Shown here: positions 10,559-56,455 of the stretch, one piece after another
Numbering within the stretch: the first letter of the stretch is position 1
Layout of the letters: each line of letters begins with the position of its first letter
Assembly (NCBI GenBank): GCA_002430735.1
Contig: DJCV01000013.1
Span: 33,460-97,459, forward strand
DNA from: Candidatus Woesebacteria bacterium UBA5941
GTDB lineage: Bacteria; Patescibacteriota; Microgenomatia; UBA8517
DNA: 64,000 bases
Direction: 5' to 3'
The notes under the pieces: model-generated
Database searches by the model: none
What the model was told of the DNA's origin: nothing
The model's input: the letters and a program-made list of their open reading frames with translations, nothing else
Position numbers and translations under genes: made by a program

Positions 10559-10614
10559 ACTCTATATTATAACAAGAGCGGGCTTTAGAAGCTCGTATAT
10601 GATACAAATATCTC

Positions 10615-30660: not shown

Positions 30661-31662
30661 ATGGCGCAAAAAATTATCCCTACCGTTATTGCAATGGCGG
30701 GACTGTTTTTAATAGGCTTTTTTCTAGGAAAAAGTAACCCGGATTCATTGAACAGTGCTCTAAATACTATCCGAGGACAGCAAGTCAGACAAAGTGGATT
30801 CACATATATTAATCCGCTCCTTGAGTGTGAGATTGCAGAAGAACTGGATTTTGCGGAATTGACACCATTTAAGAAGGATGTTGAGAAGTATGTTGGTGAC
30901 CAAATTACGAGTGGGGATGCAACACATATTTCTATTTACTTTAGAGACCTCATGAACGGGCCGTGGATGGGAATAAATGAACGGGAGGAATTCTCCCCGA
31001 GTTCATTATTAAAAGTTCCCCTTATTATGTCTTTTTACTTACAAAGTGAAAAGGATCCCTCATTACTTGAACGAAAGTTTTTATATAACGGTACCTTTGA
31101 TATTGAGGATAATCAAAATATAACACCAGAGGAGACATTAGCAGTAGGTAACGAGTATTTCGGTGAAGAATTAATTGAGAGAACCATTCGTTTTTCTGAC
31201 AACAATGCGGCCAAGTTATTGTCTCAAAGCATGATGAGTGAGTATTTTTTTAAACCATATAAAGATCTTGGATTAAAGCTGCCAGTTATGTCAAACGGTG
31301 AGTATTACATTCGTGTTAAAGACTATGCATCATTTTTTCGAGTTCTCTACAATGCATCTTATTTGACTAAGACCAGTTCTGAAAAAGCACTTTCAATACT
31401 TGCACGCTCCACCTTCAATGAAGGGCTAAGGGGCGGCGTCCCGAGCACAATCCCAGTTGCCAGTAAATTTGGGGAACGAATCTGGGAAAATACAAACGAG
31501 CATCAAATGCATGATTGTGGGATTGTGTATTATCCAGGGCATCCTTATCTCTTATGTGTCATGACAAAAGGGAAGTCGTTTGAATCTCTCGAAAAAACAA
31601 TTTCTGGTGTGTCAAGGCTTATATATGAAAAGGCGAACGAGGCTTACTCGATTCGAGATTAA
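30661..31662 (+). CDS. Class A beta-lactamase-like serine hydrolase (penicillin-binding-fold), membrane-anchored.
   Basis: It has an N-terminal TM helix. An S-x-x-K-like 'SPSSLLKV' is present, along with the SDN loop 'RFSDNNAAKLL' and a KTG-like 'SKFG'. Confidence 0.55.
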   Translation: MAQKIIPTVIAMAGLFLIGFFLGKSNPDSLNSALNTIRGQQVRQSGFTYINPLLECEIAEELDFAELTPFKKDVEKYVGDQITSGDATHISIYFRDLMNGPWMGINEREEFSPSSLLKVPLIMSFYLQSEKDPSLLERKFLYNGTFDIEDNQNITPEETLAVGNEYFGEELIERTIRFSDNNAAKLLSQSMMSEYFFKPYKDLGLKLPVMSNGEYYIRVKDYASFFRVLYNASYLTKTSSEKALSILARSTFNEGLRGGVPSTIPVASKFGERIWENTNEHQMHDCGIVYYPGHPYLLCVMTKGKSFESLEKTISGVSRLIYEKANEAYSIRD

Positions 31663-33982: not shown

Positions 33983-34903
33983 ATGAAGAAATCCCTTATT
34001 ACTGTCACTACTGTGCTGTCACTTGTACTGAGCGTGCATGATATTCACGCTCAAACAGTCGTTCCTACTGCACGTCCGCGGGTCACAAGAACCGCGACTC
34101 CTACCGTGAGTCCAACTCCCTCTGAAACACCCGTTCCTACAGTCGAACCGGTTCCTACACAAAGGCCTGATATTACCCAAAGAACTGAAGAATCAGTCGG
34201 TCCGCTTGAAAAGATTTTGAAAGAAGAATCTTTAGGAGCAGTATGGAAGGCTCCACTTAAGCATGTTATCGCTCGAGCAGTTAAAAACGGAGTACCAGCA
34301 AATACTGTTGTACTGCTTCTCTTGTTGCCTGTGGTAGCTGCCTTCGTCGCAGGTGCAAGACATTTATTAGGACTTCAAGGGTTCGGGATCTTACTGCCTG
34401 CAGCGCTTGCTATTTCATTCTTAGCACTTGGCCCAATTGTTGGAATCGGCATGTTTTTAGTGATCATTGGAAGTTCAACACTTGGACGTATGTTCTTGCG
34501 TAAGATTAAGCTAAGACTACACTATTTACCTCGAATGTCCTTGCTCCTTGCATTTACAGTGCTCTGTATTTTAGGCGTGCTATTACTTGGCTCAACGATT
34601 AATGTCTCAGGTATTACCAACGTCTCAATTTTCCCCGTACTCTTTTTAGTTCTTCTCTCTGAAGACTTTATTCGTGTGCAATTAGGGAAGAGCTTCCATA
34701 CTGCCGTCAATATTACCGCTCAAACACTCTTGCTCGCGCTTGTTTCATACTTCTTCCTAACACTTTCTGAAATTCAGATGTTTGCTATTAAATATCCAGA
34801 AATCTTAATTGGGGGAGTACTTGTCATTAACATCGTATTAGGAAAGTTTTCCGGGCTCAGACTTCTTGAGTACTACCGTTTTAGAAAGTTAATTAAAAAG
34901 TAA
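33983..34903 (+). CDS. Membrane protein with a signal peptide, a Pro/Thr-rich linker and 6-7 TM helices (a '7TM' receptor-like module of the kind linked to RimK-type ligase systems).
   Basis: The signal peptide plus 'PTARPRVTRTATPTVSPTPSETPVPTVEPVPT' linker is followed by at least 6 hydrophobic helices. It lies immediately upstream of the ATP-grasp/protease/RimK genes. Confidence 0.55.
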   Translation: MKKSLITVTTVLSLVLSVHDIHAQTVVPTARPRVTRTATPTVSPTPSETPVPTVEPVPTQRPDITQRTEESVGPLEKILKEESLGAVWKAPLKHVIARAVKNGVPANTVVLLLLLPVVAAFVAGARHLLGLQGFGILLPAALAISFLALGPIVGIGMFLVIIGSSTLGRMFLRKIKLRLHYLPRMSLLLAFTVLCILGVLLLGSTINVSGITNVSIFPVLFLVLLSEDFIRVQLGKSFHTAVNITAQTLLLALVSYFFLTLSEIQMFAIKYPEILIGGVLVINIVLGKFSGLRLLEYYRFRKLIKK

Positions 34904-34913
34904 CCTTACCACT

Positions 34914-36227
34914 ATGAAACTGAATCACATCCTAGGGCTGAACGCTCGAAGCCAGCATTTTACGTTCCAAAGTAACACCCGCGAGGGGAAGCGTATTGCA
35001 AAGTCTAAAATCCTCACAGCAAAACATCTCAAAAAACTCGGAATCCCTACACCGCGCATCTATAAAAAGTTTTTTAAGCCAGAACATATCATGGATTTTG
35101 ACTGGAAGCAGCTGCCTTCAAGCTTTGCATTAAAACCAAGCAAAGGATTGGGTGGTGGGGGAATTATTGTGATCAAAAGAAAGAGTAAAGACGGAAAATT
35201 CTGGACTACAACCAATAAAGAGAAGCTCACCATAGACGATATGAAGCTCCATGTACTCGACATTTTAGAAGGAGCGTTTAGTATTGGCAGTGTTCCAGAC
35301 TCAGCTTTTATTCAAGAATATGTAGGTCGTCACAAGGCATTTACGCGATACGCGTACCGTGGAACTCCCGATATTCGCGTTATCGTGTTTAACAAAGTTC
35401 CGGTTATGGCAATGTTGCGACTTCCCACTAAAGAAAGTGGAGGAAGGGCAAATCTTCACCAAGGCGCTGTTGGAGTGGGTATCGATATCGCAACAGGGGT
35501 CACGACAAAGGCAATATGGCATGGGGAACCGATTAAATATAAGCCTGATTCAGACCGTAAGCTCACTGGAGTCAAGATTCCACAGTGGACTAAGATTCTT
35601 GAAACGGCCGCAAAATCGGCCGAAATTCCAGGACTTGGGTATATGGGCGTAGATATTGTGCTGCATCCAGAACGAGGACCAATGGTACTTGAAGTTAATA
35701 GCCAACCAGGTCTCCAGATTCAGCTTGCAAACTTAAGCGGCCTTAAAAAGCGTCTTGAGCGTGTGGATGATCTCGATGTTCAAGGGTTCGAACAAGGCGT
35801 TCGTATTGCCAAAGCGCTGTTTGCTGATAAGGAAGTGGTTGTCAGCATGAAGGCAGAAGAGGGAATTCAGACGGTAACTGCAGTACAAGAAATCACTCTC
35901 CGAGGCGAAAATAAAAAGAAAATGCAGGTTATGGCAAAACTAGATACAGGGGCATGGCGAACTTCTATTAGTCGTGATATCGCTGAAGACTTAGGATTGT
36001 TAAAGCCAGGTAACATTTTGTGGGAAAAGCGTGTGCAAAGCAGCTTAGGACTTGAACGCAGACCAATTATTCTTTTGACCTTTGTCCTTGCAGGGCGCAA
36101 AATAACCACAGATGCATCTGTGGCTCAACGAGCGTCGCTCAAATACCCAATGATTGTCGGTCGAAAGAATTTGAAAGGTTTTCTTATAGACCCAGGAATC
36201 AGGTATAATAAAAAGAATAGAGTATGA
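34914..36227 (+). CDS. Fusion of an ATP-grasp protein (alpha-L-glutamate-ligase-related, rimK_rel_E_lig-like) and a retropepsin-like clan-AA aspartic protease.
   Basis: N-terminal ATP-grasp motifs are 'FALKPSKGLGGGGIIVI', 'DIRVIVFNKVPVMAMLRLP' and 'ANLHQGAVGVGIDIATG'. The C-terminal 'KLDTGAWRTSIS' (DTGA active-site motif) and 'MIVGRKNLKGFLIDP' are typical of retropepsin-like proteases found next to RimK-related ligases. Confidence 0.7.
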   Translation: MKLNHILGLNARSQHFTFQSNTREGKRIAKSKILTAKHLKKLGIPTPRIYKKFFKPEHIMDFDWKQLPSSFALKPSKGLGGGGIIVIKRKSKDGKFWTTTNKEKLTIDDMKLHVLDILEGAFSIGSVPDSAFIQEYVGRHKAFTRYAYRGTPDIRVIVFNKVPVMAMLRLPTKESGGRANLHQGAVGVGIDIATGVTTKAIWHGEPIKYKPDSDRKLTGVKIPQWTKILETAAKSAEIPGLGYMGVDIVLHPERGPMVLEVNSQPGLQIQLANLSGLKKRLERVDDLDVQGFEQGVRIAKALFADKEVVVSMKAEEGIQTVTAVQEITLRGENKKKMQVMAKLDTGAWRTSISRDIAEDLGLLKPGNILWEKRVQSSLGLERRPIILLTFVLAGRKITTDASVAQRASLKYPMIVGRKNLKGFLIDPGIRYNKKNRV

Positions 36228-37102
36228 AAATTACCCTCCTAACAACACTCCCTAGTTTAATTGAAAACCGCCGTATTAAAGAAGAAGTTGAGGCAAGAGG
36301 AGATACCTTTGCACTTGTGGATATGAAGGAATTCTCTTATAAGGTCATAAACGATACTCTTTCAGTACCTCAAATGGATGTATTACTTGCAAGCGATGTT
36401 GTTATTGTAAGAGGAATCTTTAATGCAGTGAAATCAATTGCTTCCCTTGTTGCCTATTTAAGAGCGAAAGGTGTTCGCGTGTTCGACAATAATTTGAGCT
36501 CACACCCGTATTCTATTGATAAAGTAGTTGATGTTTTTAAGCTCGCTTTAGCTCACATCCCAACTCCAAACACTGTGTACGCAAGGTCATTTGATGAATA
36601 CCCACAGCTACTGGAACAAGTAGGGTACCCCGCTATTATCAAATCAACACGGATGGGGAAGGGAGTGGGGGTAAATAAATATGACACAAAAGAGGAGGCC
36701 GCGCAGTACATTAATGAGCTCAAATCAAACGATGCGAATGCGAAAAGTTACCTTATTCAATCATACATTCCATATGAACACGACCTTCGTGTACTTGTTA
36801 TTGGTCGCACAATGTATGCGATGAAAAGAATACCTCAATCTGGTGAATTTAGGGCGAATTTTTCGCTTGGAGGCAGTGTCGAGCCCTTCCCTTTGACGCC
36901 TGAAATTGAAGAGCTTTCGTTGAGAGCAATTACTGCCGTTGGATTAGAAATTGCAGGAGTAGATATTTTAATTGAACCGAATGGAAAAAAGTACATTCTG
37001 GAGGTAAACCACACTCCTGGATTTGAAGGTATGGAAAAAGCGCTTAACAGTAATATTGGCAGTAAGTTTTTAGAATACGTTCTAGACGCCGCTCATATAT
37101 AA
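36224..37102 (+). CDS. RimK-family ATP-grasp alpha-L-glutamate ligase.
   Basis: It has 'GYPAIIKSTRMGKGVGV', 'YLIQSYIPYEHDLRVLVIG', 'GEFRANFSLGGS', 'AGVDILIEPNGKKYILEVNHTPGF', and an ATGA overlap with the upstream gene. Confidence 0.8.
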   Translation: MKITLLTTLPSLIENRRIKEEVEARGDTFALVDMKEFSYKVINDTLSVPQMDVLLASDVVIVRGIFNAVKSIASLVAYLRAKGVRVFDNNLSSHPYSIDKVVDVFKLALAHIPTPNTVYARSFDEYPQLLEQVGYPAIIKSTRMGKGVGVNKYDTKEEAAQYINELKSNDANAKSYLIQSYIPYEHDLRVLVIGRTMYAMKRIPQSGEFRANFSLGGSVEPFPLTPEIEELSLRAITAVGLEIAGVDILIEPNGKKYILEVNHTPGFEGMEKALNSNIGSKFLEYVLDAAHI

Positions 37103-37109
37103 TACCCAT

Positions 37110-38003
37110 ATGAAAATCCTTATTGTCGGCTTAAAAACGAATCCACAGCTTTATCGCTTGCAAGATGAGGCTGTTAAAAGAGGCCATCAGATTCACGGGT
37201 GTCTGACATCGGATCTTTCAATTGAGGCCTCTCAAAACGCATTTAAACCAGCCCTTTTGGAAGAAGACATTACCAGTTTTGACGTTATTTATTTATGGGC
37301 ACTTGGGAAACGACGATGGGAATGGTGCACTGCATGTTTATGGTTACAAGAACATTATGGAACTGTTATCGTAAATCAAAAATTAATTGATCCGACATAC
37401 AATTATTTTTTAAGTCCTGCAATTGATTATTTGCGACAAAAAGAAAACAAATTATTATTTCCAAAATCTGCAATTTTATTTTCATTAAAAACTTTAAACA
37501 AAGTTATCAAAAATTTTGAATTTCCATTAGTTGTTAAACCAAGCAATGGTCGCCAAGGCCGCGGCGTTTCTAAGGTACATACATTAGCAGAACTCTATAA
37601 ATCAATTGATGCGTTAAATGAAGACGAATCCCCAGCCTTTGTGTTACGTGAATTTATCCCGAATGATGGGGATATTCGTGTGTTTACGGTGGGATATAAG
37701 GCTATTGGGGCAATGAAAAGAACCCCTAAAAAAGGTGATTTTCGCAGTAACATTAGCCAAGGTGGCAGCGGAAAAAGTTTTAGTTTAGCCAAAAACCCTG
37801 AAGTGAAGAAAATTGCAGAAAAATTAAGCAAAATCACCCGAACTGAGATTGCGGGGGTAGACATAATGATCCACAAGAAGACTAAAAAGCCATATATTTT
37901 AGAAATCAACCCCGGTCCCCAATTCACAGGATTTGAGAAGTTTACTAAAATGAATGCTGCAAAAGAGATTATCCTCTACTTTGAGAAAATCGCGAAGAAA
38001 TAA
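37110..38003 (+). CDS. RimK-family ATP-grasp ligase (second paralogue).
   Basis: It has 'FPLVVKPSNGRQGRGV', 'VLREFIPNDGDIRVFTVG', 'GDFRSNISQGGS' and 'AGVDIMIHKKTKKPYILEINPGPQF'. Confidence 0.75.
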   Translation: MKILIVGLKTNPQLYRLQDEAVKRGHQIHGCLTSDLSIEASQNAFKPALLEEDITSFDVIYLWALGKRRWEWCTACLWLQEHYGTVIVNQKLIDPTYNYFLSPAIDYLRQKENKLLFPKSAILFSLKTLNKVIKNFEFPLVVKPSNGRQGRGVSKVHTLAELYKSIDALNEDESPAFVLREFIPNDGDIRVFTVGYKAIGAMKRTPKKGDFRSNISQGGSGKSFSLAKNPEVKKIAEKLSKITRTEIAGVDIMIHKKTKKPYILEINPGPQFTGFEKFTKMNAAKEIILYFEKIAKK

Positions 38004-38005
38004 AA

Positions 38006-38030
38006 ACGTCCACACGATGTGTGTGGACGT
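38006..38030 (-). terminator. Intrinsic terminator (10-bp perfect stem) oriented for the minus-strand gene 38056-38466.
   Basis: The + strand reads acgtccacac-gatgt-gtgtggacgt, preceded by an A-run. This gives the U-tract on the minus strand. Confidence 0.6.
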
Positions 38031-38055
38031 ATCCCCAATTTGAGCGATATCTATA

Positions 38056-38466
38056 TTATTCAGGCATTGTGAACTGGATGTCGGTTATGTTCAGGGAAAT
38101 TTCATGACTACCATTTGCATCGGTGATGTTTACGATGAACTGGTTGTCATCGCCTTCCCCGTATACATGTATCGTTACATTCACTCCAGCACAAGTGAAT
38201 GATTCACGCAGCCGCTCAAATGCGTCACTCAAATTAAACTGCATTTCGGTGTCAGGAACTGGGATTGCTGATAAACCAAAGGGTATTTTCAGGATGTGTA
38301 CCTTCTGTTTGCTGTCCGTAACATGGACTTCAAACTGATCTTCGTCGTTCTCCCCTAAAACTTCAATGGATATACCCGCGTTAAGAATACCTGTGACTTC
38401 ACGCAGTTGTTCAAATGCCGCACTGAGTGTATCCGTTACAGCCAACTGCTCATTATGAGTTAACAT
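38056..38466 (-). CDS. Hypothetical acidic protein built from two internally duplicated halves of about 60 aa.
   Basis: 'LSAAFEQLREVTGILNAGISIEVLGENDEDQFEVHVTD' and 'LSDAFERLRESFTCAGVNVTIHVYGEGDDNQFIVNITD' are an internal repeat. A terminator lies downstream. Confidence 0.5.
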   Translation of the reverse strand: MLTHNEQLAVTDTLSAAFEQLREVTGILNAGISIEVLGENDEDQFEVHVTDSKQKVHILKIPFGLSAIPVPDTEMQFNLSDAFERLRESFTCAGVNVTIHVYGEGDDNQFIVNITDANGSHEISLNITDIQFTMPE

Positions 38467-38553
38467 TATTGTCTCCTTAAACTCAAATCGGTAACCGATA
38501 GTGTACTACTCAAGCCATCGTAAGTCAAAAAAGTAGCCTATATTGTATAAAAA

Positions 38554-38589
38554 TGGTATAATGCCCTATCGTTTTTCTGCATGAGGAGG
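38554..38589 (+). promoter_or_regulatory. Extended -10 sigma70-type promoter (TGgTATAAT) plus a strong Shine-Dalgarno (GAGGAGG) for ORF 38595-39161.
   Basis: tggtataat lies at about 38554-38562. gaggagg lies 6 nt before the ATG at 38595. Confidence 0.5.
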
Positions 38590-38594
38590 CTGTT

Positions 38595-39161
38595 ATGTCT
38601 GCATACGAAAAGCTCGTTAAAAACCTCGATCCCGGCATCGAAGCATTCAAGGAAGGAACACTGCCCCAACGTCTGGGTGACTATGCCCAATTTCGCGTGA
38701 TGCTCAGGGCGTTGTTGATAGGAGCGGAAATTGACTTCACCGGGCATGAAGCCTGGTCTGAAGCACAATTTCGTCGTCTGGATCAAGGTCGCGGGCCGGC
38801 GGTGGTTGCAGCGCTTGGACGTGAACGTGCAGAACAAATGGTGCATGATGCCGTTGCATATGCCGAATGGTATATGGGCGAGCAGTATTCCAGCGTGGTG
38901 CTGGAAGCAGGTATGCGGCAGGTGTTGGCCGATGTTTTGGCGGTAGCCATCCTGGACGGTGAGCGTTCACAGAAAGCGTTCAACTCGCTCCAAAAGCGTG
39001 TTTTGGCTGGATATCGCCGGTTGGCCGAAAAGAAGAATGCATTGAAACAATACGTGCCAGCCATTGATGCCCTGTTTCAGGGTGACCTGCCTGACAGCGG
39101 TTTTGGCGCTACGCCTGTGGGCGGCCTGACTTTCGTCATGCACATGTTCGACTCTGAATAA
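38595..39161 (+). CDS. Hypothetical protein encoded by a compositionally foreign gene (about 54% GC, CTG-dominated leucine codons).
   Basis: The 188-aa ORF carries a canonical promoter/RBS upstream and a strong terminator downstream. Its GC content and codon usage differ sharply from flanking genes, and several spurious antisense ORFs appear because of the high GC. Confidence 0.6.
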   Translation: MSAYEKLVKNLDPGIEAFKEGTLPQRLGDYAQFRVMLRALLIGAEIDFTGHEAWSEAQFRRLDQGRGPAVVAALGRERAEQMVHDAVAYAEWYMGEQYSSVVLEAGMRQVLADVLAVAILDGERSQKAFNSLQKRVLAGYRRLAEKKNALKQYVPAIDALFQGDLPDSGFGATPVGGLTFVMHMFDSE

Positions 39162-39175
39162 GGGTTGAGCAGACC

Positions 39176-39212
39176 AGCTGGGGTGGATTCACATCTGCCC
39201 CAGCTTTTTTAT
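39176..39212 (+). terminator. Rho-independent terminator.
   Basis: The stem agctgggg/ccccagct has a 14-nt loop and is followed by tttttt. It lies immediately after the stop at 39161. Confidence 0.75.
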
Positions 39213-39228
39213 TTGATAAAATACCTAT

Positions 39229-39603
39229 ATGAACTATTTTCTTGCGAAAACAGAAGCTGAAGAGTATTCCATTGATGACCTGAAACGTGATGGAAAGATT
39301 CCGTGGACTGGAGTTAATAACCCGCAGGCTAAAAACTTTTTAAAGTCTATGGTGAAGGGAGACTTGGTATATATTTATCATACCGGTAATGTTAAGGCGA
39401 TTGTTGGATTAGCTGAAGTCATAGAAGAAGGTGAAGTACCAGTGTTTTCGTACAAAAAGACATTTACTCCTCCACTTGCAACACTCCATGAAATAAAATC
39501 ATATGAGGAGTTTTCAGATTTAAAGTTAGTCAGACAATCACGACTTTCAGTTATGGATGTTCCACCAAAACTTCTTTCATTTCTTCAAAAAAAGGCACAA
39601 TAA
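39229..39603 (+). CDS. EVE (PUA-like) domain protein.
   Basis: 'MNYFLAKTEAEEYSIDDLKRDGKIPWTGVNNPQAKNFLKSMVKGDLVYIYHTG..IVGLAEV' matches the EVE domain consensus (M.YWL.K.EP..FSI.DL...G...W.GVRN.QARN.L..M..GD..F.YHS). Confidence 0.7.
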   Translation: MNYFLAKTEAEEYSIDDLKRDGKIPWTGVNNPQAKNFLKSMVKGDLVYIYHTGNVKAIVGLAEVIEEGEVPVFSYKKTFTPPLATLHEIKSYEEFSDLKLVRQSRLSVMDVPPKLLSFLQKKAQ

Positions 39604-39642
39604 AAGCCGAAGATAGTTCCTCGGCTTTATTACGCATTGATC

Positions 39643-40242
39643 CTAAAAAGGTGCATAGAGATAAATGCGATGCGGCGCATTTGCTCGATCTCGAATTTCA
39701 ATGAAACCGTGCTTTGCCTCATAAAACGGTTCACCTTCATTTTGCATCAGTTTAAAAAGCGTTGTGAGCGCAAGCAAAATGTGTTCCTTGGCGGTGGTAA
39801 TCTCAGGCGGTGTCGCTAAACACATCCCAACGTTTGGAAATACCTTTACTTCAAGGTTCATGTGATCCAATTCTTCACCTATCAGGGTAAATGCATTGGT
39901 CACCCTGATCTCGGGCGTTCGATACGGGTTGATGGGATTTTCTACTGTCACAATCAAATGCGGATATGATGCCAAGTCACTGGTTATGTAAATGCCCTTT
40001 GGTGCATATCGTGGTTCTACTGTTGTGTATTGCTTGAGTAACCACATGATCACGTGGGTTAAATATTCCCCAGTGATATCTTTATCCCACGGATTTGATA
40101 AAAGCATTCCAGATTGCCGACTAACCATATTGGGTCGAATTCCCCAACGTGCTAATAACCTCGCCGCTTGACCTAAGACATTCTTTCCCTCTGACATGAG
40201 AACCTCCAAAATGTACACCTGTAATGTGGGCAAGTATATCAT
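39643..40242 (-). CDS. Hypothetical protein, with possible remote T-fold/GTP-cyclohydrolase-I-like similarity.
   Basis: The ORF is 199 aa, and the likely start is MSEGKNV (an internal Met about 15 codons in). Weak resemblance in 'KEHILLALTTLF...GFIEIRDRA' to the FolE C-terminal helix/'IRD' region is speculative. Confidence 0.4.
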   Translation of the reverse strand: MIYLPTLQVYILEVLMSEGKNVLGQAARLLARWGIRPNMVSRQSGMLLSNPWDKDITGEYLTHVIMWLLKQYTTVEPRYAPKGIYITSDLASYPHLIVTVENPINPYRTPEIRVTNAFTLIGEELDHMNLEVKVFPNVGMCLATPPEITTAKEHILLALTTLFKLMQNEGEPFYEAKHGFIEIRDRANAPHRIYLYAPF

Positions 40243-41200: not shown

Positions 41201-41608
41201 TTACTTTAATTCAACAGTAGCTCCTGCTGCTTTAAGCTTTTCAGCTGCTGATTTAGCATCTTCAGCTTTAGCATTTTCAAGAACTGTTGCTGGAACAGCT
41301 TCTGTTAAGTCTTTTGCTTCTTTAAGTCCTAAGTTTTGATTAATCTCACGAAGGGCCTTAATAACAGAAATTTTGTTAGCTCCAGTATCAGTCATAACAA
41401 CTGTTTGAGTTGAGCTTTCGCCTGCGGCTGCGGCTCCGGCTTCAGCTGGTGCTGCTGCAGCAGGGGCTGCTGCTGCGACCGGCATGGCGGAGACACCAAA
41501 CTTCTCTTGCAAAGCGGAAACCATATCAGCAAGTTCTAATACTGAAAGATTAGAAATTTCTTCAATGAGTTTTTCGACTTTTGCGGTTAGTTTCTTTTCG
41601 TCTGCCAT
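41201..41608 (-). CDS. rplL: 50S ribosomal protein L7/L12.
   Basis: It has the Ala-rich hinge and the C-terminal 'ISVIKALREINQNLGLKEAKDLTEA...AAGATVELK'. Confidence 0.9.
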   Translation of the reverse strand: MADEKKLTAKVEKLIEEISNLSVLELADMVSALQEKFGVSAMPVAAAAPAAAAPAEAGAAAAGESSTQTVVMTDTGANKISVIKALREINQNLGLKEAKDLTEAVPATVLENAKAEDAKSAAEKLKAAGATVELK

Positions 41609-41625
41609 AGTTAGCTCACCTCCTC

Positions 41626-42168
41626 TTATGCATTCATACTCTTTTGTCGTGCATGAAGCACGTACACGAGTTTTTGAATGTTTCCATTTAAAGTGGACAT
41701 CAGTCCGTATAGTGGGGATGAAATTCCACCAACTACTTGCGCAATTAATTGATCTTTACCAGGAAGTTTTGAAATACGTCCAATTCCTGCTGCATCTTGA
41801 AAAATTCCTTCAACAACAGCTGCTTTCCATTTTGTTTTTTCAGTATCAGCCATGAACTTACCTAAAATTTGAATAGGAGCAACAGGATCTTTTTCAGCAA
41901 CTACAACAGCAGTTTGACCTGACAAAATAGTATCAGAGAATGCTTCTTCCGGGAGATTTGCGTTCTTCGCAGCAATTTTAATGAGGGTATTTTTTGCAAC
42001 AAGCATTTTTCCATTTCCTTCTTTAAGCTTCTTTTTAAGTGCTTGTCCCTCTTTCATGGTGAGTGTTGTGTAATCAACAAACATGACAGAAGACGCATTT
42101 TTAAGCGCCTCTGAAAGAGCGGAAACTTCGTTTAATTTTGTGTCTTTAATTTGTTTTGAATGTTTCAT
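41626..42168 (-). CDS. rplJ: 50S ribosomal protein L10.
   Basis: The 180-aa gene lies upstream of rplL and has an L10 N-terminal 'K..LNEVSAL...L...SS.MFVDY.TLT' pattern. Confidence 0.85.
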   Translation of the reverse strand: MKHSKQIKDTKLNEVSALSEALKNASSVMFVDYTTLTMKEGQALKKKLKEGNGKMLVAKNTLIKIAAKNANLPEEAFSDTILSGQTAVVVAEKDPVAPIQILGKFMADTEKTKWKAAVVEGIFQDAAGIGRISKLPGKDQLIAQVVGGISSPLYGLMSTLNGNIQKLVYVLHARQKSMNA

Positions 42169-42312: not shown

Positions 42313-42747
42313 ATGTTTTTGATACGGAGGAGTGTGTGGGGTGAACGGCTTCAGAAAGTACTTTTGGTTTGTGGAATAGTTTTGATTTGCAGCGTGTGTG
42401 CAGCACTTTCAGTGATAACATACCAGCTTTCACAGCCGCTGTCTGTGGTGGAATGCGACGACTTTGTAGCTAAAGTCGTTGAAATTGTGACAGAACATGG
42501 GCCGCAACGTGAGCTTGTAGTCGAAGTCCAAAAGTACGTTTCCCCCAACGTGTTTGAAACAAATCAGTATCCAGGACTTATCGGCTTCCCTCACAAATCA
42601 GTTGGGAAGCTGATTGGAGAATGCAAGGGAAATAAGGTTACCTTTGCAGCAGAAAATATTGATGGTTCCTGGGACAGCTACCAGGTTTGTTTAGGACAAC
42701 GGTGTTCGGATGAGGAGAGAAAACCAGTTCGAATAAACATTGGGTAA
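42313..42747 (+). CDS. Hypothetical membrane-anchored protein.
   Basis: The 144-aa ORF has an N-terminal TM helix and lies upstream of the PA14 protein on the same strand. Confidence 0.4.
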   Translation: MFLIRRSVWGERLQKVLLVCGIVLICSVCAALSVITYQLSQPLSVVECDDFVAKVVEIVTEHGPQRELVVEVQKYVSPNVFETNQYPGLIGFPHKSVGKLIGECKGNKVTFAAENIDGSWDSYQVCLGQRCSDEERKPVRINIG

Positions 42748-42833
42748 TACACCTCGAAATATAGGCGGATAGTCTCCGCCTTTTTTGTTGAAGACTTTCT
42801 TGACACGTTACCTCAACACTGCTTTCATGAGTA

Positions 42834-45800
42834 ATGGAGTTTGATATGAATCGAGATCCGATTCAATTCGATAGTGAGAATAAAGCCTTCACTTTAAAAG
42901 AGAAAATGAGGGCATTTAAAATGTCTCTGAGACATTCTGCTTCTCCCTCCAAAAAACCTATTGTCAGCGGCATTTTAGTAATAGCCCTTGCAATTAGTAC
43001 TGTGTTTTTAACACAGCGCGTGCAGACTCCGGTACCAGTTGCTGAGAATTCACAAGCGGCGGTTCCCGTTCCCTGGACGTATCCTCGGAAGTTAAAAGTT
43101 ATCATTCTTCGTTATTTTAACCCGTCATCCCCTGAAGCATTTCGAAGCCCTGCTAATGCACAAATTCTGACGGATAATATGCAGGGTATTCTTTTTCAAT
43201 CTTCAAAATTCAAAGGAAATCCGATTGCTACGTCCTCTGTTCAGGTTGAGGTAGCTGGTACATATGACTTCAATGGCCTTCCGCCAAACCCTACAGGTGA
43301 ATGGGAGGATGGATATCGGCAGATGGTTGAACAAATCTTGCCAGGTGAGAATAGAACTGTCTGTGATCGCATTAATGCTGAGGGAATTGACCAAGTGTGG
43401 TTTATGGGTGACCCTTCTCAACCTGGCTTTATCAAGGGTCCTGAGTTTGCAATATCAAGCAAATACATTCGTCCTGAAACACTGGCGCTTAATTATGAGT
43501 ATCAGATTTTGCCAAAGACGCTGTTTTGTGGTGGCCAGAAGAGTTTTATGGTTTTCTATTTTGATTTAAGCCGTGTCGAAGTAAGTTCACATGCAATGGG
43601 TCATTATATGGAATCTCTTTTAGGTGCGGCACAGGGATTTGAACTTTTTACTAAAGGGTACATGGGAGTTTCATATTATGGTAATGGTGTTGATGGTGAG
43701 GCGATTCCTGGAGTGAACCTGTCTGACAAGTGCGGGAGTATTCACGTCCCTCCAAATGTATCAACGATCCTGAGTACTAATCCAAACCGATATAAAGGAT
43801 ATGAGTACGGTGATCCTACTGAAGTTCAATCCAGTTGTGACAACTGGAAGCCTGATGGCTCAGGTGCGAAGTCTGCCGTGAGTGCGGCAACTTGGACGAA
43901 TAGCAACAACCTTATTGGTAGCCAGGAATTGCGATATCACACATGGTGGATGCGGAATTTGCCAAATATGAATAATGGGCTCACCTATAACCAGATTCCA
44001 CTTCCGAATTGGTGGGATTTTATGGTTGATACTGATGAAACAATCGCATTTTATCTCAACAATACGTATTATATGAATCCAGATCTCTTCTTTGCAGTTA
44101 ACACTTCAGCGTGTGCTTCTACGACAAATGATACGTATATTACGTGTTCCTTTAATCCATCTGGGGTGTTGGGAGCAGCGACTGAATCTACTGAGAAAGA
44201 TTCTGAATTGTCACCTGCAGTATTGCAATCATCTGCTGCAGAATATGGAAAAATGATCTTAGTGACTGTTGGGTATTCTCCAAGCGCGGCAAACGCTTCT
44301 GCTGCCGTAGAGGTTGCCAGTTATTGCGGTCTTCCGCTCACTAAAGTGAATGCCACCCCATCGAGTGGTGGTGGCATGAAAACAGAGATGTTTTACATTA
44401 TCAATCCCGTAGGTACAAATTGTCAGGCGTATTTACAGTTTACGAGAGCTCCTGGAGAACGAATCGTGTCAGTCAGTGAATTTAATAATGTTGCCACAAC
44501 CGGAACCGTTTCAACTGGAACGACAATAACCGGTTCAACAAGTACTACCTATACTATTAACCCGACCTTCGTATCACTTAACTTAACAAGCACAAAAGAT
44601 ACCTTACCATTGTGTACCTACGCTCAGTATTCAGAACAGACAACTCCTCCAAATACAAATGCGGTAACTACAACAGGAAAAACACGCCAATTATGGAAAT
44701 ATGAACATACTCGAGTGTTAGGCCCTAATGGAGAGCCGAATCCAAATGGACCAATTGCCAATGTGTGGGGCGGTTTGGTTGGTGGCACTCAGAGAACTGC
44801 TGATGGGATGCAAACCGTGACATGGACGTTTGGGAAAACAATGCCGTGGTCAGCGACATGCGCAAACTTTAAAGTAAAGCCGTTTACTACGCCACCAACT
44901 ACCCCTCCTGTCACCCCTCCACCGCCAACGCCTGCTCCGATTCCGTCAGTTACCTTAAAGGTAAACGGCGCAGATAATGTAACAATTCCATATAACAAAT
45001 CTGTGTCACTTTCGTGGACTTCATCAAATGTCACCAGTTGTACTGCGAGTAACGGTTGGACGGGAACAAAAGCAGTGTCTGGTTTTGAGACAACAGCATT
45101 ACTTACTGCTAATAAGACTTATACGATCAATTGCACCGGTTCATTTGGTAGTGTGAGTGATACTGTGAACGTCACTGTAACGAGAGTGCCTGTTGTTGAT
45201 TTGAAAATTAATGGAAGTGATACCTCCGTAACACTTGAAAAAGGAATTGCACCGACTCTTGCATGGACTCAAACAGGAGCAACGAGCTGTACTGCAAGTG
45301 GTGGATGGACTGGGACAAAAGCGGTTGCTGGCGGTTATGAAAAGGGGGCCGTTCTTGGAAATAATGCAACCTATACCTTAACGTGTACAAATGCGTCGGG
45401 AAGTGCGAGTGATACAGTGTCCGTGGTTGCAGCAGCAACAACTGCAAAAACGGGTTATTTAGCTCAATATTTCAGTGACACTAATTTCCAAAAGCTGGGT
45501 TCACAGAGTGTTATCAGTTCTATTAATTTTGATTGGGGAACGACTGGTTTACCATATCCTGGTGGACCGTCAAACTACTATTCATCGCGATATACAGCAC
45601 AAATTACTCCATCTGTAACTGGAACATATACCTTTATTACGACTTCTGATGATGGGGTACGTCTGTACGTAGACGACGTACCTGTTATTTATGATTGGAT
45701 TTATCATGGAAGAGCTATATCGACAGGCACGATTGCATTAACGGCAGGGAAGCAATACGATTTCGTACTCGAACATGCTGAATCAACAGGTGGTGCCACC

Positions 45801-47159
45801 ATGATTTTCCAAGCAGGAATTGGCACTTCACCAGCGGCATTGAACCCAAAAGCCGTCGCATTAAATTTGGGCAATAATGGGGGAGGCTTAACAGCTGAAT
45901 ATTTCGGAACTGATTCATTCACGAATGTAATTGCAACCACTCGAGAACCGCTTCTTGATTCACTGTGGACCACTGTTCCGACGTCCCAGTTGCCACGGAC
46001 ATATAACTCTGCTCGATATTCTGGAACTATTACTCCAAAGGTCAGTGCGACCTATACGTTTGCTATCCCTCAAGGGGTGAGAATGTGGATTAACAACGTT
46101 GAAAAGACAGCATCTCCGACTCAGGCGATGACAGCAAACACTGCATATAACATTCGGTTTGAGACGAAACTGGGTGAATATATGTACTTTTACGCCCGTT
46201 GGAAGTATGGAACTCAGCCATACACGGCTCTTGATTTTCGATTCTTACGACCACTCGTGACAACCCAGACACAGCAACCGTCACCTCCTGTGTCTGCTCC
46301 TTCAAGACAAGGGATAACGGGAACATATTTTGATAAAAGAGATTTCACTGGGAATTCAGTGTCCCGAATCGACCCGTATATCCAGTTTTATTGGTCAGGT
46401 GCCGTGCCAATTGAGACAATTCCAACGAAAGACTTTTCGGTGCGATGGACTGGGTCACTTGTTGTTCCAACTGCCGGCGCGTATACCTTCTACACAGAGG
46501 CTGACGATGGGATAAGAGTGTTTGTAGATGGGCAAAAAGTAATTGATAAATGGACATGGGAATCACACTCTGGGAACGAGCAATCTTCCAATGCTATAAA
46601 CCTGTCCGCCGGAGACCATTCCTTGGTGGTTGAGTACAATCAAGGCAGTGGAGGTTCAAAGGCCATTCTTCGATGGAGTGGTCCAAATATTACAAAGCGG
46701 GTTATTCAAACTGAAAATCTAAAAGCCGAAAACGCGCTTGTTTCAGGTGTGCGAGCAAGTTACTTTAACAACGAATCATTCTCAGGAACGAGTATCGATA
46801 AGACAGACCCCTCCATTAACTTTACTTGGAATACTGACGCTCCTACTACAGGTGTAAACGCAAATAATTTTTCTGTTCGATGGACTGGTGTTGTGAATGT
46901 TACAGATCAAGGTAGTTATACCTTTTACACAGAGGCTGACGATGGGATGAAAATATGGATCGACGACCAGCTCGTTCTGGACTACTGGTGGTGGCAGAGC
47001 CATTATGGCGCTGAGAAGGCTTCAAACGCGATCACTTTGAGTCCTGGCACCCATACGGTAAAGGTTGAAGCGCATGATGCCAGTGGAGGTTCAAAGGCGA
47101 TTCTTCGATGGAGCGGTCCAAATATCCCAAAGCAAGTCGTTCCACTGTATTTGAATTGA
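42834..47159 (+). CDS. Large secreted protein (1441 aa). It has an N-terminal domain of unknown function, a Pro/Thr linker, two Ig-like domains and four C-terminal PA14 domains.
   Basis: It has a signal/TM 'IVSGILVIALAISTVFL' and the linker 'PPTTPPVTPPPPTPAPIP'. The two Ig-like modules of about 80 aa carry 'SCTAS.GWTGTKAV'. The PA14 signatures 'GITGTYFDKRDFTG...FSVRWTG...YTFYTEADDG(I/M)(R/K)(V/I)(F/W)(V/I)D' occur four times. Confidence 0.8.
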   Translation: MEFDMNRDPIQFDSENKAFTLKEKMRAFKMSLRHSASPSKKPIVSGILVIALAISTVFLTQRVQTPVPVAENSQAAVPVPWTYPRKLKVIILRYFNPSSPEAFRSPANAQILTDNMQGILFQSSKFKGNPIATSSVQVEVAGTYDFNGLPPNPTGEWEDGYRQMVEQILPGENRTVCDRINAEGIDQVWFMGDPSQPGFIKGPEFAISSKYIRPETLALNYEYQILPKTLFCGGQKSFMVFYFDLSRVEVSSHAMGHYMESLLGAAQGFELFTKGYMGVSYYGNGVDGEAIPGVNLSDKCGSIHVPPNVSTILSTNPNRYKGYEYGDPTEVQSSCDNWKPDGSGAKSAVSAATWTNSNNLIGSQELRYHTWWMRNLPNMNNGLTYNQIPLPNWWDFMVDTDETIAFYLNNTYYMNPDLFFAVNTSACASTTNDTYITCSFNPSGVLGAATESTEKDSELSPAVLQSSAAEYGKMILVTVGYSPSAANASAAVEVASYCGLPLTKVNATPSSGGGMKTEMFYIINPVGTNCQAYLQFTRAPGERIVSVSEFNNVATTGTVSTGTTITGSTSTTYTINPTFVSLNLTSTKDTLPLCTYAQYSEQTTPPNTNAVTTTGKTRQLWKYEHTRVLGPNGEPNPNGPIANVWGGLVGGTQRTADGMQTVTWTFGKTMPWSATCANFKVKPFTTPPTTPPVTPPPPTPAPIPSVTLKVNGADNVTIPYNKSVSLSWTSSNVTSCTASNGWTGTKAVSGFETTALLTANKTYTINCTGSFGSVSDTVNVTVTRVPVVDLKINGSDTSVTLEKGIAPTLAWTQTGATSCTASGGWTGTKAVAGGYEKGAVLGNNATYTLTCTNASGSASDTVSVVAAATTAKTGYLAQYFSDTNFQKLGSQSVISSINFDWGTTGLPYPGGPSNYYSSRYTAQITPSVTGTYTFITTSDDGVRLYVDDVPVIYDWIYHGRAISTGTIALTAGKQYDFVLEHAESTGGATMIFQAGIGTSPAALNPKAVALNLGNNGGGLTAEYFGTDSFTNVIATTREPLLDSLWTTVPTSQLPRTYNSARYSGTITPKVSATYTFAIPQGVRMWINNVEKTASPTQAMTANTAYNIRFETKLGEYMYFYARWKYGTQPYTALDFRFLRPLVTTQTQQPSPPVSAPSRQGITGTYFDKRDFTGNSVSRIDPYIQFYWSGAVPIETIPTKDFSVRWTGSLVVPTAGAYTFYTEADDGIRVFVDGQKVIDKWTWESHSGNEQSSNAINLSAGDHSLVVEYNQGSGGSKAILRWSGPNITKRVIQTENLKAENALVSGVRASYFNNESFSGTSIDKTDPSINFTWNTDAPTTGVNANNFSVRWTGVVNVTDQGSYTFYTEADDGMKIWIDDQLVLDYWWWQSHYGAEKASNAITLSPGTHTVKVEAHDASGGSKAILRWSGPNIPKQVVPLYLN

Positions 47160-48927: not shown

Positions 48928-49010
48928 TCAAAACTTCAGGAAGAGCGACTGAACAACTCCCGTTTGCACCCATACCCCATATTCTTTATAATAACGCCAT
49001 CAATCGGTTT

Positions 49011-49586
49011 GTGATGGAGGTTTCCGCAATGCTCACACGGATGAAATGGGGAGACATCGTCAACAGCCCCCTGATGCAAGTTCTCATGTACGATAACAAA
49101 CGGTACATGGCAAGAAATTTATCAGGCGGGCATCTACCGAAAGGTCTGTTTTGCCAGCCAGAGTACACCACTGTGAAGGCGAAACGTATTGAGATCGGTG
49201 GGGTAACATTCATTGATGATTACAATGCCCAGGTGTATGAACCAGGGGACTACCGCCTCTGGGACGGAAACACACCTGATGATCAGTTGCATATACACCG
49301 GAGTTGGACAGCAAAAAAAATGTCATTTGAAGCCACGTATACGGTGTTAAGAGAAAGGGCAGAGTTCGTTGTAGCCCATAAAACGGGCTATTTACAAGCA
49401 GCGCTCATACCTGTGCCGTTTTTCGTGTGGACTCTGGACAATAAAAACAAGCCGTTCTACTATCCGGCCGGGAGCATTATGGTTCGTCAGGTGACACCTG
49501 ATGGCCAAGTGTTATCCGATGAATATGCAATGCCTGCACATCGGTTCAGTCGGTATCAGCCAGTGAAAGCAGCACGGGTTGCATAA
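49011..49586 (+). CDS. Hypothetical protein with elevated GC (about 49%) and foreign-looking codon usage.
   Basis: The 191-aa ORF is followed by a strong intrinsic terminator. It is inserted between rplK and nusG. Confidence 0.5.
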   Translation: MMEVSAMLTRMKWGDIVNSPLMQVLMYDNKRYMARNLSGGHLPKGLFCQPEYTTVKAKRIEIGGVTFIDDYNAQVYEPGDYRLWDGNTPDDQLHIHRSWTAKKMSFEATYTVLRERAEFVVAHKTGYLQAALIPVPFFVWTLDNKNKPFYYPAGSIMVRQVTPDGQVLSDEYAMPAHRFSRYQPVKAARVA

Positions 49587-49601
49587 CAGCAACCACTAAG
49601 T

Positions 49602-49633
49602 CCCTTAGGTGTACTGAGGGGCTTATTTTTTTT
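49602..49633 (+). terminator. Rho-independent terminator.
   Basis: The stem cccttag/ctgaggg is 7 bp with one G-U pair and a 5-nt loop. It is followed by cttatttttttt. Confidence 0.65.
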
Positions 49634-49677
49634 GCAGAAAAAAGAGGGAAAGGCGAAAAAAGCATTAACGAAAGGTG

Positions 49678-50808: not shown

Positions 50809-50837
50809 TGCTCATTTTAACATGATAAAATTTTGGC

Positions 50838-51848
50838 ATGGATTCAAATACCGAATATTCATTAAAAGGGAGGACTGAAACGCTGGAGGCTGAAACAACC
50901 CAGCAACTTGAACTTACAAAAATTTCTCCAGAGGCCCAAGAGAAGCTCTCTGAATTCGGCCTGTCTGAGCAGTCGGTACAAGAATTGCGTGATATTACTG
51001 CTTCATTTCGATACGATTTAGTTCCCAAACGTGCTGAAGAAATTTTCTCACAGAACGACGTCTTTATTGCAATGGATAATAATGGTGAAAAATGTGCTGT
51101 TATACCTAATTTTTACGATCCAAAAGGATCTCTTGAAGGTAATTGCGATCAGCTTGGGTTCCAGTTTATTACGAATATGCGAATGCAATCGTGGCTTGAA
51201 GATTGCAATGATGAAATTGCACAAAACGGGGGAAAACCAGTAGAAGCAGTACTTTGTATTGGTAAATCTGACGAGTTTTTTGTAAAGGAAGGCCAGAATC
51301 ACGTATGGGTTGCGTTACGCCAGCAAGGGAGCAGGATAAAGGAAGATATGGTAGACATTGATCCGGCACTCCAAAAAATTGGTACTCCGGTAGAGGACAA
51401 TTATGAGCACAAACGTGTATTTAAGGATACCGGTGAATTCGCGCTGTCTTTAACGGAAAAAGTGCGAATTGGTGCACTGACTGCTTCTGAAGACGGGGGA
51501 ATGAATTATGAGGCCACTGATTCAATTGTGTTAGGAGTTTCTCCCGATAGAACAGTTGCATATGCATTAGGCTATGTTGAGAATGGCGATGGTGGTGAAA
51601 TCCTGCCAATCGTGAAAGTATTGGACACCGCAGGTGAAATAGTAACAACACATTTGGTGGAGCCCCAAACAGGAAATATTTTTGACGGGGGGAATATCGA
51701 CAGTCTGAGTGAATCTTCCAGAAGTGATATCGATAATTTGCTTGGCGCGCTGGCAAAAACTCAATTTAACAGTGATATCGGTCAATTCCCGTATGCAATT
51801 GACCAATCCACTCTCGAAGACGAAGGATACTTTATAAATGTTAAATGA
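50838..51848 (+). CDS. Hypothetical protein.
   Basis: The 336-aa ORF has no recognised motif. Confidence 0.5.
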   Translation: MDSNTEYSLKGRTETLEAETTQQLELTKISPEAQEKLSEFGLSEQSVQELRDITASFRYDLVPKRAEEIFSQNDVFIAMDNNGEKCAVIPNFYDPKGSLEGNCDQLGFQFITNMRMQSWLEDCNDEIAQNGGKPVEAVLCIGKSDEFFVKEGQNHVWVALRQQGSRIKEDMVDIDPALQKIGTPVEDNYEHKRVFKDTGEFALSLTEKVRIGALTASEDGGMNYEATDSIVLGVSPDRTVAYALGYVENGDGGEILPIVKVLDTAGEIVTTHLVEPQTGNIFDGGNIDSLSESSRSDIDNLLGALAKTQFNSDIGQFPYAIDQSTLEDEGYFINVK

Positions 51849-56086: not shown

Positions 56087-56455
56087 ATGAATCTTCTTTT
56101 GATTGCGCACATCGGTGGAGCAATTGCCATTTCATTTGCGATATTCGTGTCTCTCTGGTCATTACCTAAGAGTAAACAGACATTGCATAAGCAGTTATTT
56201 GTATCGCTAGGAATTGGGTCAATGATACAAACAATAACGGGATCATTACTTGCTGTGTCGAGCGAGGGCACAATTGCGAGTTATTGTGCAAAGATGGGGC
56301 TGTATCTTTCTGCAATTTTTGTAACTGAGCTACTCCTTCTGCGAAAACTGCAAGACAGCTCTTCCCTCGAATCTACAAAACGTTTGTTTGTGTATATCAC
56401 CATAAATACCGTTTTAGTATTCGTAACAGTGGTATCCCTTACCTACTACGCATGA
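56087..56455 (+). CDS. Hypothetical membrane protein.
   Basis: The 122-aa ORF has 4 predicted TM helices. Confidence 0.4.
   Translation: MNLLLIAHIGGAIAISFAIFVSLWSLPKSKQTLHKQLFVSLGIGSMIQTITGSLLAVSSEGTIASYCAKMGLYLSAIFVTELLLLRKLQDSSSLESTKRLFVYITINTVLVFVTVVSLTYYA

Follow-up and report, generated by a model that had tools for sequence, protein, structure and literature searches.

A GC-rich gene with its own expression signals at the canonical site of a rare Patescibacteria protein family

Where does a gene come from when its base composition points away from the genome that carries it? The question is raised by a 64,000-nucleotide stretch of Candidatus Woesebacteria bacterium UBA5941 (assembly GCA_002430735.1, contig DJCV01000013.1, positions 33,460 to 97,459 of the forward strand); the whole of this stretch is called the window below. 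It contains a compact, GC-rich gene with its own promoter, ribosome-binding site, and terminator. The initial annotation took this cassette for a recent acquisition from a proteobacterium or phage, or alternatively for a chimeric assembly or contamination. Very probably, the gene is instead typical of its lineage and stands in a canonical locus, rather than being proteobacterial, a phage gene, or an artefact. On balance, the best overall explanation is that the gene encodes an accessory protein, typical of the lineage, that serves an ATP-grasp ligase system; the copy in this genome was probably exchanged within the phylum. The protein family is referred to here by a working name, FAM. The gene and its signals are arranged as follows (aa, amino acids; nt, nucleotides):

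38554 to 38562, plus strand: extended −10 element TGGTATAAT (TGgTATAAT), read directly and found by pattern search, 32 nt 5' of the ATG
38583 to 38589, plus strand: Shine-Dalgarno sequence GAGGAGG, 5 nt ahead of the ATG
38595 to 39161, plus strand: FAM coding sequence, 188 aa, an all-helical protein of a rare uncharacterised family
39176 to 39215, plus strand: intrinsic terminator, a stem-loop (39176 to 39205) followed by the T-run TTTTTTATTT

The open reading frame (ORF) is indeed as GC-rich as first described. Its GC content is 0.538, against 0.405 and 0.408 in the left and right 1-kb flanks and 0.422 in the window, and composition shifts sharply at both ends of the cassette. Over sliding 567-nt segments, the peak of the whole window falls here (0.552 at 38624 to 39190; z = +3.9), the runner-up reaching 0.513. 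GC at the three codon positions is 0.67, 0.40, and 0.55, a periodicity of the coding type. The third-position value (GC3) is the highest among the window's 50 long ORFs, the rest of which range from 0.24 to 0.44 except for one at 0.52 (49014 to 49586). The overlapping antisense ORFs that had been reported are present too: four of 58 to 102 aa, along with one of 71 aa in an alternative sense frame, and nothing speaks in their support. ORF 38595 to 39161 itself is a genuine protein-coding gene of a Patescibacteria genome (Candidate Phyla Radiation, CPR; Woesebacteria-like).

The lineage of the host can be read from ribosomal protein L11. The window's L11 shares 73 to 76% identity with proteins whose names assign them to Candidatus Woesebacteria or the Patescibacteria group, and among PDB sequences the L11 entries of Thermotoga, Mycobacterium, and Thermus rank well above that of E. 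coli. By these comparisons, the host is a Patescibacteria (Woesebacteria-like) bacterium. The L11 of a contig that recurs below, L013 (CAZSLA010000006.1, titled "uncultured Gammaproteobacteria bacterium"), ranks likewise: it is 72% identical to that of the window, and E. coli L11 comes about 25th among the PDB sequences. Ribosomal proteins encoded by L013 are 50 to 72% identical to the window's. The gammaproteobacterial label of this contig, or its binning, looks wrong.

FAM has few known relatives. A word-indexed protein search returned nothing but the FAM protein itself. When 1.84 billion cluster representatives were searched exhaustively with phmmer (HMMER), nine distant homologues emerged (E from 2.5e-16 to 8e-4; 30 to 43% identical over the matched parts), and a profile search added five (homologues P0002 to P0015); scans of genome contigs and of metagenome contigs yielded one new FAM locus each. 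The homologues, about 15 at 21 to 37% identity, share collinear conserved motifs (alignments A1 and A2): QFRxLDQGRGPAVV; G(R)GLxQxLAD; LNxRVxxG; and ASxPxGG..W. This unannotated family thus counts some 16 known members among roughly 15 billion proteins. Pfam, NCBIfam, and PHROGs gave only noise against FAM and all 15 family members, and a PDB sequence-profile search returned designed helical repeat proteins only, with no solved structure matched. The AlphaFold2 model built with the family alignment is all-α (predicted local distance difference test, pLDDT, 83.7; predicted template-modelling score, pTM, 0.84); Foldseek found no PDB match to it better than E = 0.94, and none better than E of about 1 in PDB or BFVD. 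Ala (13%), Arg (7%), and Gln (6%) are abundant in the protein, Cys is absent, and C-termini vary among the members (DSE, DGE, GEE, TSK, LSK, and others).

FAM is a rare, very fast-evolving family of helical proteins of about 190 aa. Between two related loci, L008 and L009, the neighbouring ligase RimK2 is 79% identical and FAM 34%; between the window and its relatives, the figures are 55 to 64% for RimK2 and 25 to 38% for FAM. Because the family evolves so fast, an identity of 25 to 38% is not by itself a sign of foreignness.

The most telling evidence is the address. The window genes that surround FAM are these:

33983 to 34903, plus strand: 7TM_transglut membrane protein, RloB-like (PF14402, E = 2.8e-21), the first gene of the cluster; 50 to 54% identical in L008, L011, and L013
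34914 to 36227, plus strand: ATPgrasp_ST ligase, RloC-like (PF14397, E = 1.5e-67), with a C-terminal RimB-like retropepsin domain (PF05618, 31.3 bits; cut-off 27); 59 to 63% identical in relatives
36224 to 37102, plus strand: RimK-like ATP-grasp ligase 1 (PF08443, E = 5e-31; Rimk_N, 28.1 bits; cut-off 26.4)
37110 to 38003, plus strand: RimK-like ATP-grasp ligase 2, RimK2 (PF08443, E = 8e-31), with the identity to relatives given above
38056 to 38466, minus strand: 136-aa ORFan, divergent from FAM, with its own Shine-Dalgarno sequence and its own terminator (38030 to 38006)
39229 to 39603, plus strand: EVE-domain gene (PF01878, E = 1.7e-29), directly downstream of FAM
41201 to 42168, minus strand: rplL and rplJ, which anchor the synteny and face the ligase cluster convergently in every related locus

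The order 7TM_transglut, ATPgrasp_ST (with the RimB-like domain), RimK, RimK, and FAM, near rplL-rplJ(-rplA-rplK), recurs in all six homologue contigs with a usable flank (L007, L009, and L011 from Logan; L008 and L014 from JGI; and L013, a GTDB representative metagenome-assembled genome), each of which covers all or part of it. The ligase and 7TM proteins (47 to 64% identical between loci) and the ribosomal proteins (45 to 77%) match as well; these are related genomes with one conserved cluster. In the relatives FAM lies directly 3' of RimK2. It is within the operon in low-GC relatives and in L011, and the two genes, FAM and the next ligase, overlap in L007, L008, and L009, which suggests translational coupling. 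FAM therefore has a fixed genomic address, the 3' side of an ATP-grasp amidoligase cluster convergent to rplL-rplJ. The window's copy sits where the family belongs; it therefore did not come from a proteobacterium or phage, and it is no product of misassembly. The strict linkage of an unannotated family to RloB/RloC/RimK-type amidoligase clusters by the rplKAJL region of Patescibacteria is a minor novelty in itself.

What surrounds FAM within this address is less constant: the stretch between the ligases and rplL varies among relatives, and homologues of the window's 136-, 199-, 275-, 144-, and 190-aa neighbours were not found in the related loci. The 136-aa ORFan parts FAM from the ligase operon in the window genome only. 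It is built of two tandem units, each a domain of some 65 aa (halves 45% identical, E = 9e-11; DNA repeat D1, 195-nt spacing), matches no Pfam family, and shows a GC3 excess of z = +2.45. The EVE gene on the other side is native by codon usage, has a −10-like box 6 nt before its ATG (of the leaderless type), and is 73% identical to an EVE gene at the corresponding place in a closer relative, L016.

The expression signals that had been claimed for FAM, an extended −10 element, a GAGGAGG ribosome-binding site, and an intrinsic terminator, are all in place. TAGCCT, which agrees at three of six positions, may be the −35 element, and the predicted 5' untranslated region would be some 25 to 33 nt long. 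The terminator stem has arms of 13 nt that are 85% complementary, and it is the strongest terminator-like site within the 30 to 50 kb part of the window. Singly, such motifs carry little weight: TGNTATAAT occurs four times in the window with 2.6 expected, which on its own is not beyond chance. It is the ordered layout of signals round a conserved ORF that is convincing.

The further description of these signals as E. coli-like does not set them apart, for host genes use extended −10 elements, Shine-Dalgarno sequences, and intrinsic terminators too. Two more TGNTATAAT extended −10 boxes lie 7 nt ahead of other gene starts, and terminator-like hairpins (34 in the window; 17.7 ± 4.2 in shuffles) are also found after other host genes. 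By counts that are rough because start codons were taken as the first ATG, a Shine-Dalgarno core 3 to 13 nt before the ATG is the minority mode, present in 5 of 50 window ORFs (FAM; its 136-aa neighbour; rplL, where the site is AGAGGAGGT; rplJ; and a 144-aa ORF), and 13 of the 50 long ORFs have, without a Shine-Dalgarno sequence, a −10-like hexamer of the leaderless type that ends 3 to 14 nt (mostly 6 to 7 nt) before the ATG. Examples of the latter are at 10558 to 10574, 12500 to 12516, 37095 to 37110, 39213 to 39229, and 50823 to 50838. The FAM homologue of L013, whose protein is 32% identical, has the same TGGTATAAT, also 32 nt before the first ATG, plus GGAGG and a strong terminator.

These signals suggest that FAM would have a leadered mRNA, started at an extended −10 promoter of its own and ended by intrinsic termination, with translation driven by a strong Shine-Dalgarno sequence. 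The leadered mode would be common to FAM, rplL, and rplJ where most operon-leading genes look leaderless, which suggests high expression. The locus thus displays two modes of expression in one CPR genome: a mostly leaderless-looking one, and one with strong Shine-Dalgarno sequences for a few genes.

What remains to be explained is the composition. Host coding GC is 0.424; the FAM protein written in host codons would have 0.474, and 0.541 is observed. About 43% of the GC excess therefore comes from amino-acid composition (rich in Ala, Arg, Gly, and Gln) and about 57% from synonymous choice. The first part is family-wide, since FAM exceeds its flanks in GC in all seven other loci: by +0.04 in L007, L008, and L009; +0.06 in L014 and in L011; +0.07 in L010; and +0.10 in L013. 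The homologues in L010, L011, and L013 have a GC content of 0.50 to 0.545.

The synonymous part is particular to this copy and one other. FAM GC3 is 0.548 where host codons predict 0.368 (z = +5.4, the largest of 50 genes), whereas the operon-embedded FAM genes of L007, L008, L009, L011, and L014 have GC3 like that of their neighbours; only L013 (0.576) is also raised. The earlier statement that FAM uses CTG for most leucines holds in direction: CTG, at 8 of 20 (40%) far above its host share of 9%, is the plurality codon. It is not a majority, and TTG, which had been named as a host codon, accounts for 7 of 20. Judged by host usage, only one of 50 genes has a lower synonymous log-likelihood than FAM (z about −2.6 for FAM). 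Per codon, FAM scores −1.286 with the host's codon table, −1.216 with a uniform table, and −1.219 with a table from the L013 locus; for the native EVE, RimK2, and rplJ genes, the host's table gives −0.97 to −1.02. FAM codon usage fits the host table worse than it fits a uniform one.

Three ordinary causes of the synonymous excess can be set aside. An RNA gene is not behind it, as Rfam yields no match. The ribosomal protein genes rplL, rplJ, rplA, and rplK have the lowest GC3 (0.24 to 0.29), so high expression does not account for it. Nor does mRNA structure: against synonymous-codon shuffles, FAM folding gives z = −1.8 (L013 FAM, −0.8), ordinary beside the rplJ control at −2.9.

The window holds other genes of unusual codon usage. 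A second stand-alone GC3-rich gene, at 49014 to 49586 (190 aa; GC 0.486; GC3 0.516; excess z = +4.1), has a TATAAT box, a GGAGG that precedes an internal ATG (49030), and, at 49597 to 49625, a strong terminator (region 48960 to 49635). Its protein matches no Pfam family and has no homologue in related loci; compared with FAM as a possible paralogue, it showed no relation. The lowest synonymous-codon likelihood of 50 ORFs, slightly below that of FAM, belongs to a 122-aa ORF (56087 to 56455, plus strand) that has no Pfam family.

Either a recent arrival or a bias specific to the gene must lie behind a synonymous signature so unlike the host's. For the first, which has close to an even chance of being right, the FAM copy would have been swapped in, as a stand-alone cassette, from a GC-richer Patescibacteria relative with the same cluster. 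It would not yet have ameliorated to host composition, and the 136-aa ORFan was perhaps swapped in together with it. Exchange with a GC-richer relative is preferred, and vertical descent placed second, because of four features: the copy is detached, cut off from the operon by a divergent ORFan that has a Shine-Dalgarno sequence, raised GC3, and no homologue in related loci; terminators flank the FAM-ORFan pair on both sides; relatives differ in what lies between the ligases and rplL; and FAM itself is GC-rich (0.50 to 0.545) in the GC-richer relatives. The cassette resembles an atypical genomic islet left by recent transfer in being a GC and GC3 outlier with non-host codons, with terminators at its borders, within a variable stretch that conserved genes enclose. 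It differs in that integrase, tRNA site, repeats, and donor are all missing, and in that the family is native to the site across the lineage.

Several observations weigh against such an exchange. No donor is known and the closest homologue is 37% identical; a recent transfer predicts a much closer relative among 15 billion proteins, although the lineage is very sparsely sampled. The divergence of FAM relative to its neighbours matches the general rate of the family, and is thus compatible with vertical descent. The L013 orthologue also has its own promoter along with raised GC3, which could reflect one conserved, selected property rather than two transfers. Direct and inverted repeats flanking the cassette are short chance matches only, there are no mobile-element marks, and no tRNA site was found nearby.

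The cluster is also patchy. L018 lacks it after rplL, and L016 (GCA_038206135.1, JBBRBD010000008.1; L11 87% identical) has it re-composed: next to rplL, positions 17095 to 20432 encode ATPgrasp_ST, RimK, a methyltransferase, a 192-aa protein, RimK, and EVE. The 192-aa protein has only a collinear, motif-level likeness to FAM (NAGRAPAM, SGMIQ..ALA, LNARR, SSIPPGF; hhalign E = 0.03) and may be an extremely diverged member. Among the closer relatives found through L11, the contigs of L015 and L017 end before the region, and none shows an empty site.

The second possibility, purely vertical inheritance, would have FAM in this locus all along and the GC3 excess upheld by selection, or by GC-biased gene conversion tied to frequent recombination in a diversifying gene. 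It is less likely than exchange and on the whole unlikely, even though several findings favour it: synteny kept in six of six informative contigs; a FAM-to-neighbour divergence ratio typical of the family; an L013 orthologue with the same stand-alone layout of promoter, Shine-Dalgarno sequence, and terminator and with raised GC3; and the lack of donor and mobile-element scars. Its difficulty lies in the codons. Unlike native genes, FAM suits the host table less well than the uniform one; the genes expected to be highly expressed show the opposite of what expression-linked selection would produce; mRNA folding is unremarkable; and the in-operon FAM genes of five relatives lack the GC3 excess.

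An import from a proteobacterium or phage is very improbable. Taken at face value, the cassette does look like enterobacterial gene design (GC 0.54, enrichment of CTG and CGT, a consensus extended −10 element, a strong Shine-Dalgarno sequence, and a terminator), and one homologue contig, L013, bears a gammaproteobacterial name. But that name is not credible, as its ribosomal proteins attest, and host genes use the same signals. With blastn and tblastn, the cassette matched nothing at the DNA or protein level among PLSDB plasmids, INPHARED phages, or 5,426 complete E. coli genomes; nor was there a match to the cassette among IMG/VR viral contigs, or to FAM among PHROGs and BFVD folds. All homologues with usable flanks stand in the Patescibacteria-type syntenic context, and the best matches belong to the same lineage with a similar composition (the L010, L011, and L013 homologues being GC-rich too), which refutes the strong form of the foreign-import claim. 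Of that claim, the atypical composition stands and a horizontal origin of this copy is plausible; the proteobacterial or phage donor falls away. The narrower idea of FAM exchange among Patescibacteria with the same cluster survives as plausible.

A chimeric assembly, or a contaminant such as vector DNA joined into the contig, is next to impossible. The abrupt change of composition at both ends of the cassette invites the suspicion, but window positions 38000 to 39700 recur at 100% identity in five independent contigs (L001 to L005), each of which crosses both junctions, so at the assembly level the locus is not a chimera. The sources are ENA ERZ761594 and ERZ761600, JGI 3300014773 (a 941,966-bp contig) and 3300005680, and Logan SRR5325101; they differ in sample, assembler, and coverage (9.9x and 375x in the two whose names give it). 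A sixth contig, of 775 bp, falls within the region, the coverages given for these contigs lie between 2.6x and 375x, the FAM protein occurs with identical sequence on at least 13 contigs (ENA, JGI, NCBI, and Logan assemblies), and distant homologues hold the same position in other genomes. The assembly is trustworthy at this locus; composition alone misled about the donor. Elsewhere in the window, the JGI contig L003 aligns in two 100%-identical blocks that skip positions 31044 to 31076, which suggests a small indel, variant, or unresolved stretch in one assembly.

That the cassette is no protein gene at all, but a GC-rich structured RNA or a spurious ORF, is equally remote: a GC-rich island in an AT-rich genome often proves to be an RNA gene, and folding is slightly better than in dinucleotide shuffles (z = −2.7; 20 shuffles), but codon-position periodicity, protein-level homologues with conserved motifs, a confident AlphaFold2 fold, and an ordinary z against synonymous-codon shuffles all oppose it, and Rfam gave no match at gathering score and none credible at E ≤ 1. 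The striking "E. coli-like" GC island is neither contamination nor cross-phylum transfer. Its explanation is for the most part ordinary: an orphan gene, specific to the lineage, at its canonical site, with non-host codon usage that may reflect exchange within the phylum.

What might FAM do? Because its neighbourhood is strictly conserved, in relatives it is embedded in the operon and in low-GC ones overlaps the next ligase gene, and it has no recognisable catalytic fold, FAM may work with the neighbouring ATP-grasp ligases without being an enzyme itself: as a substrate or scaffold on which they ligate amino acids, or as a specificity subunit. This proposal is tentative, with somewhat less than an even chance. 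The evidence for it comes entirely from gene neighbourhood, the FAM fold has no structural match in PDB or BFVD, and the variable C-termini argue against a simple C-terminal acceptor of the RimK/S6 or LysW type. A bolder version, which is doubtful, would make FAM a novel type of protein that serves a CPR multi-ligase ATP-grasp system as its dedicated substrate or carrier: an abundant helical protein tagged with peptides by three or four RimK/RloC-type ligases. If that were true, the rapid turnover, stand-alone high-expression cassette, and non-host codons would be marks of frequent exchange, or of diversifying selection, in episymbiotic Patescibacteria.

Known systems offer partial parallels. 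As in the RimK/S6 system, genes for RimK-family ligases go with one for a RimB-like protease, and the notion that the ligases add amino acids to a protein substrate carries over; the window cluster also adjoins ribosomal protein genes. However, FAM is not S6 and lacks a conserved acidic C-terminus, and the window cluster has several ligase paralogues. In the LysW/LysX system, a RimK-family ligase acts on a dedicated small protein from the same operon; LysW is an acidic zinc-ribbon protein of about 54 aa with a conserved EDWGE tail. Three subtype-B FAM members do end in acidic residues (DSE, EDGE, GEE), but FAM, at about 190 aa, helical, without Cys, and with a variable tail, does not have the characteristics of a LysW-like carrier. 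Graspetide (microviridin-type) precursors are short leader-plus-core peptides with ATP-grasp macrocyclases. Like them, FAM is a fast-evolving, unannotated gene beside RimK-like ATP-grasp genes; unlike them, it encodes a well-folded helical protein (pTM 0.84) of about 190 aa in which no repeated Thr/Ser...Asp/Glu core motif was seen.

A further parallel is the Rlo system, whose components RloB, RloC, and RloA-RimB have been described in Pseudomonas (RloABC, 2025; PMC11957051) and 96% of whose RloB matches are in Proteobacteria (PMC11957051). The first three genes of the window cluster resemble these components, and the cluster likewise has a 7TM_transglut protein, then an ATPgrasp_ST ligase and a RimB-like (PF05618) protease domain. 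It differs in its Patescibacteria host; in the fusion of the protease domain to the ligase C-terminus, where Rlo has a secreted protein; and in the addition of two or three RimK-like ligases and FAM, there being no FAM-like component in PMC11957051. A literature search on RimK in Patescibacteria found nothing useful. Rlo/RimK clusters are poorly understood even in Pseudomonas, and a candidate protein partner would provide a handle on what the ligases modify.

The ribosomal anchor of the locus has a peculiarity of its own. A giant PA14-domain gene (1,441 aa; window 42313 to 47159), which runs on the opposite strand, stands between the rplK-rplA pair and the rplJ-rplL pair, and PA14/Peptidase_S8 genes occupy the same place in closer relatives (1,408 aa in L015, 5839 to 10065; 1,232 aa in L018, 4056 to 7754). 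This interruption of the rplKAJL region is unusual, yet conserved.

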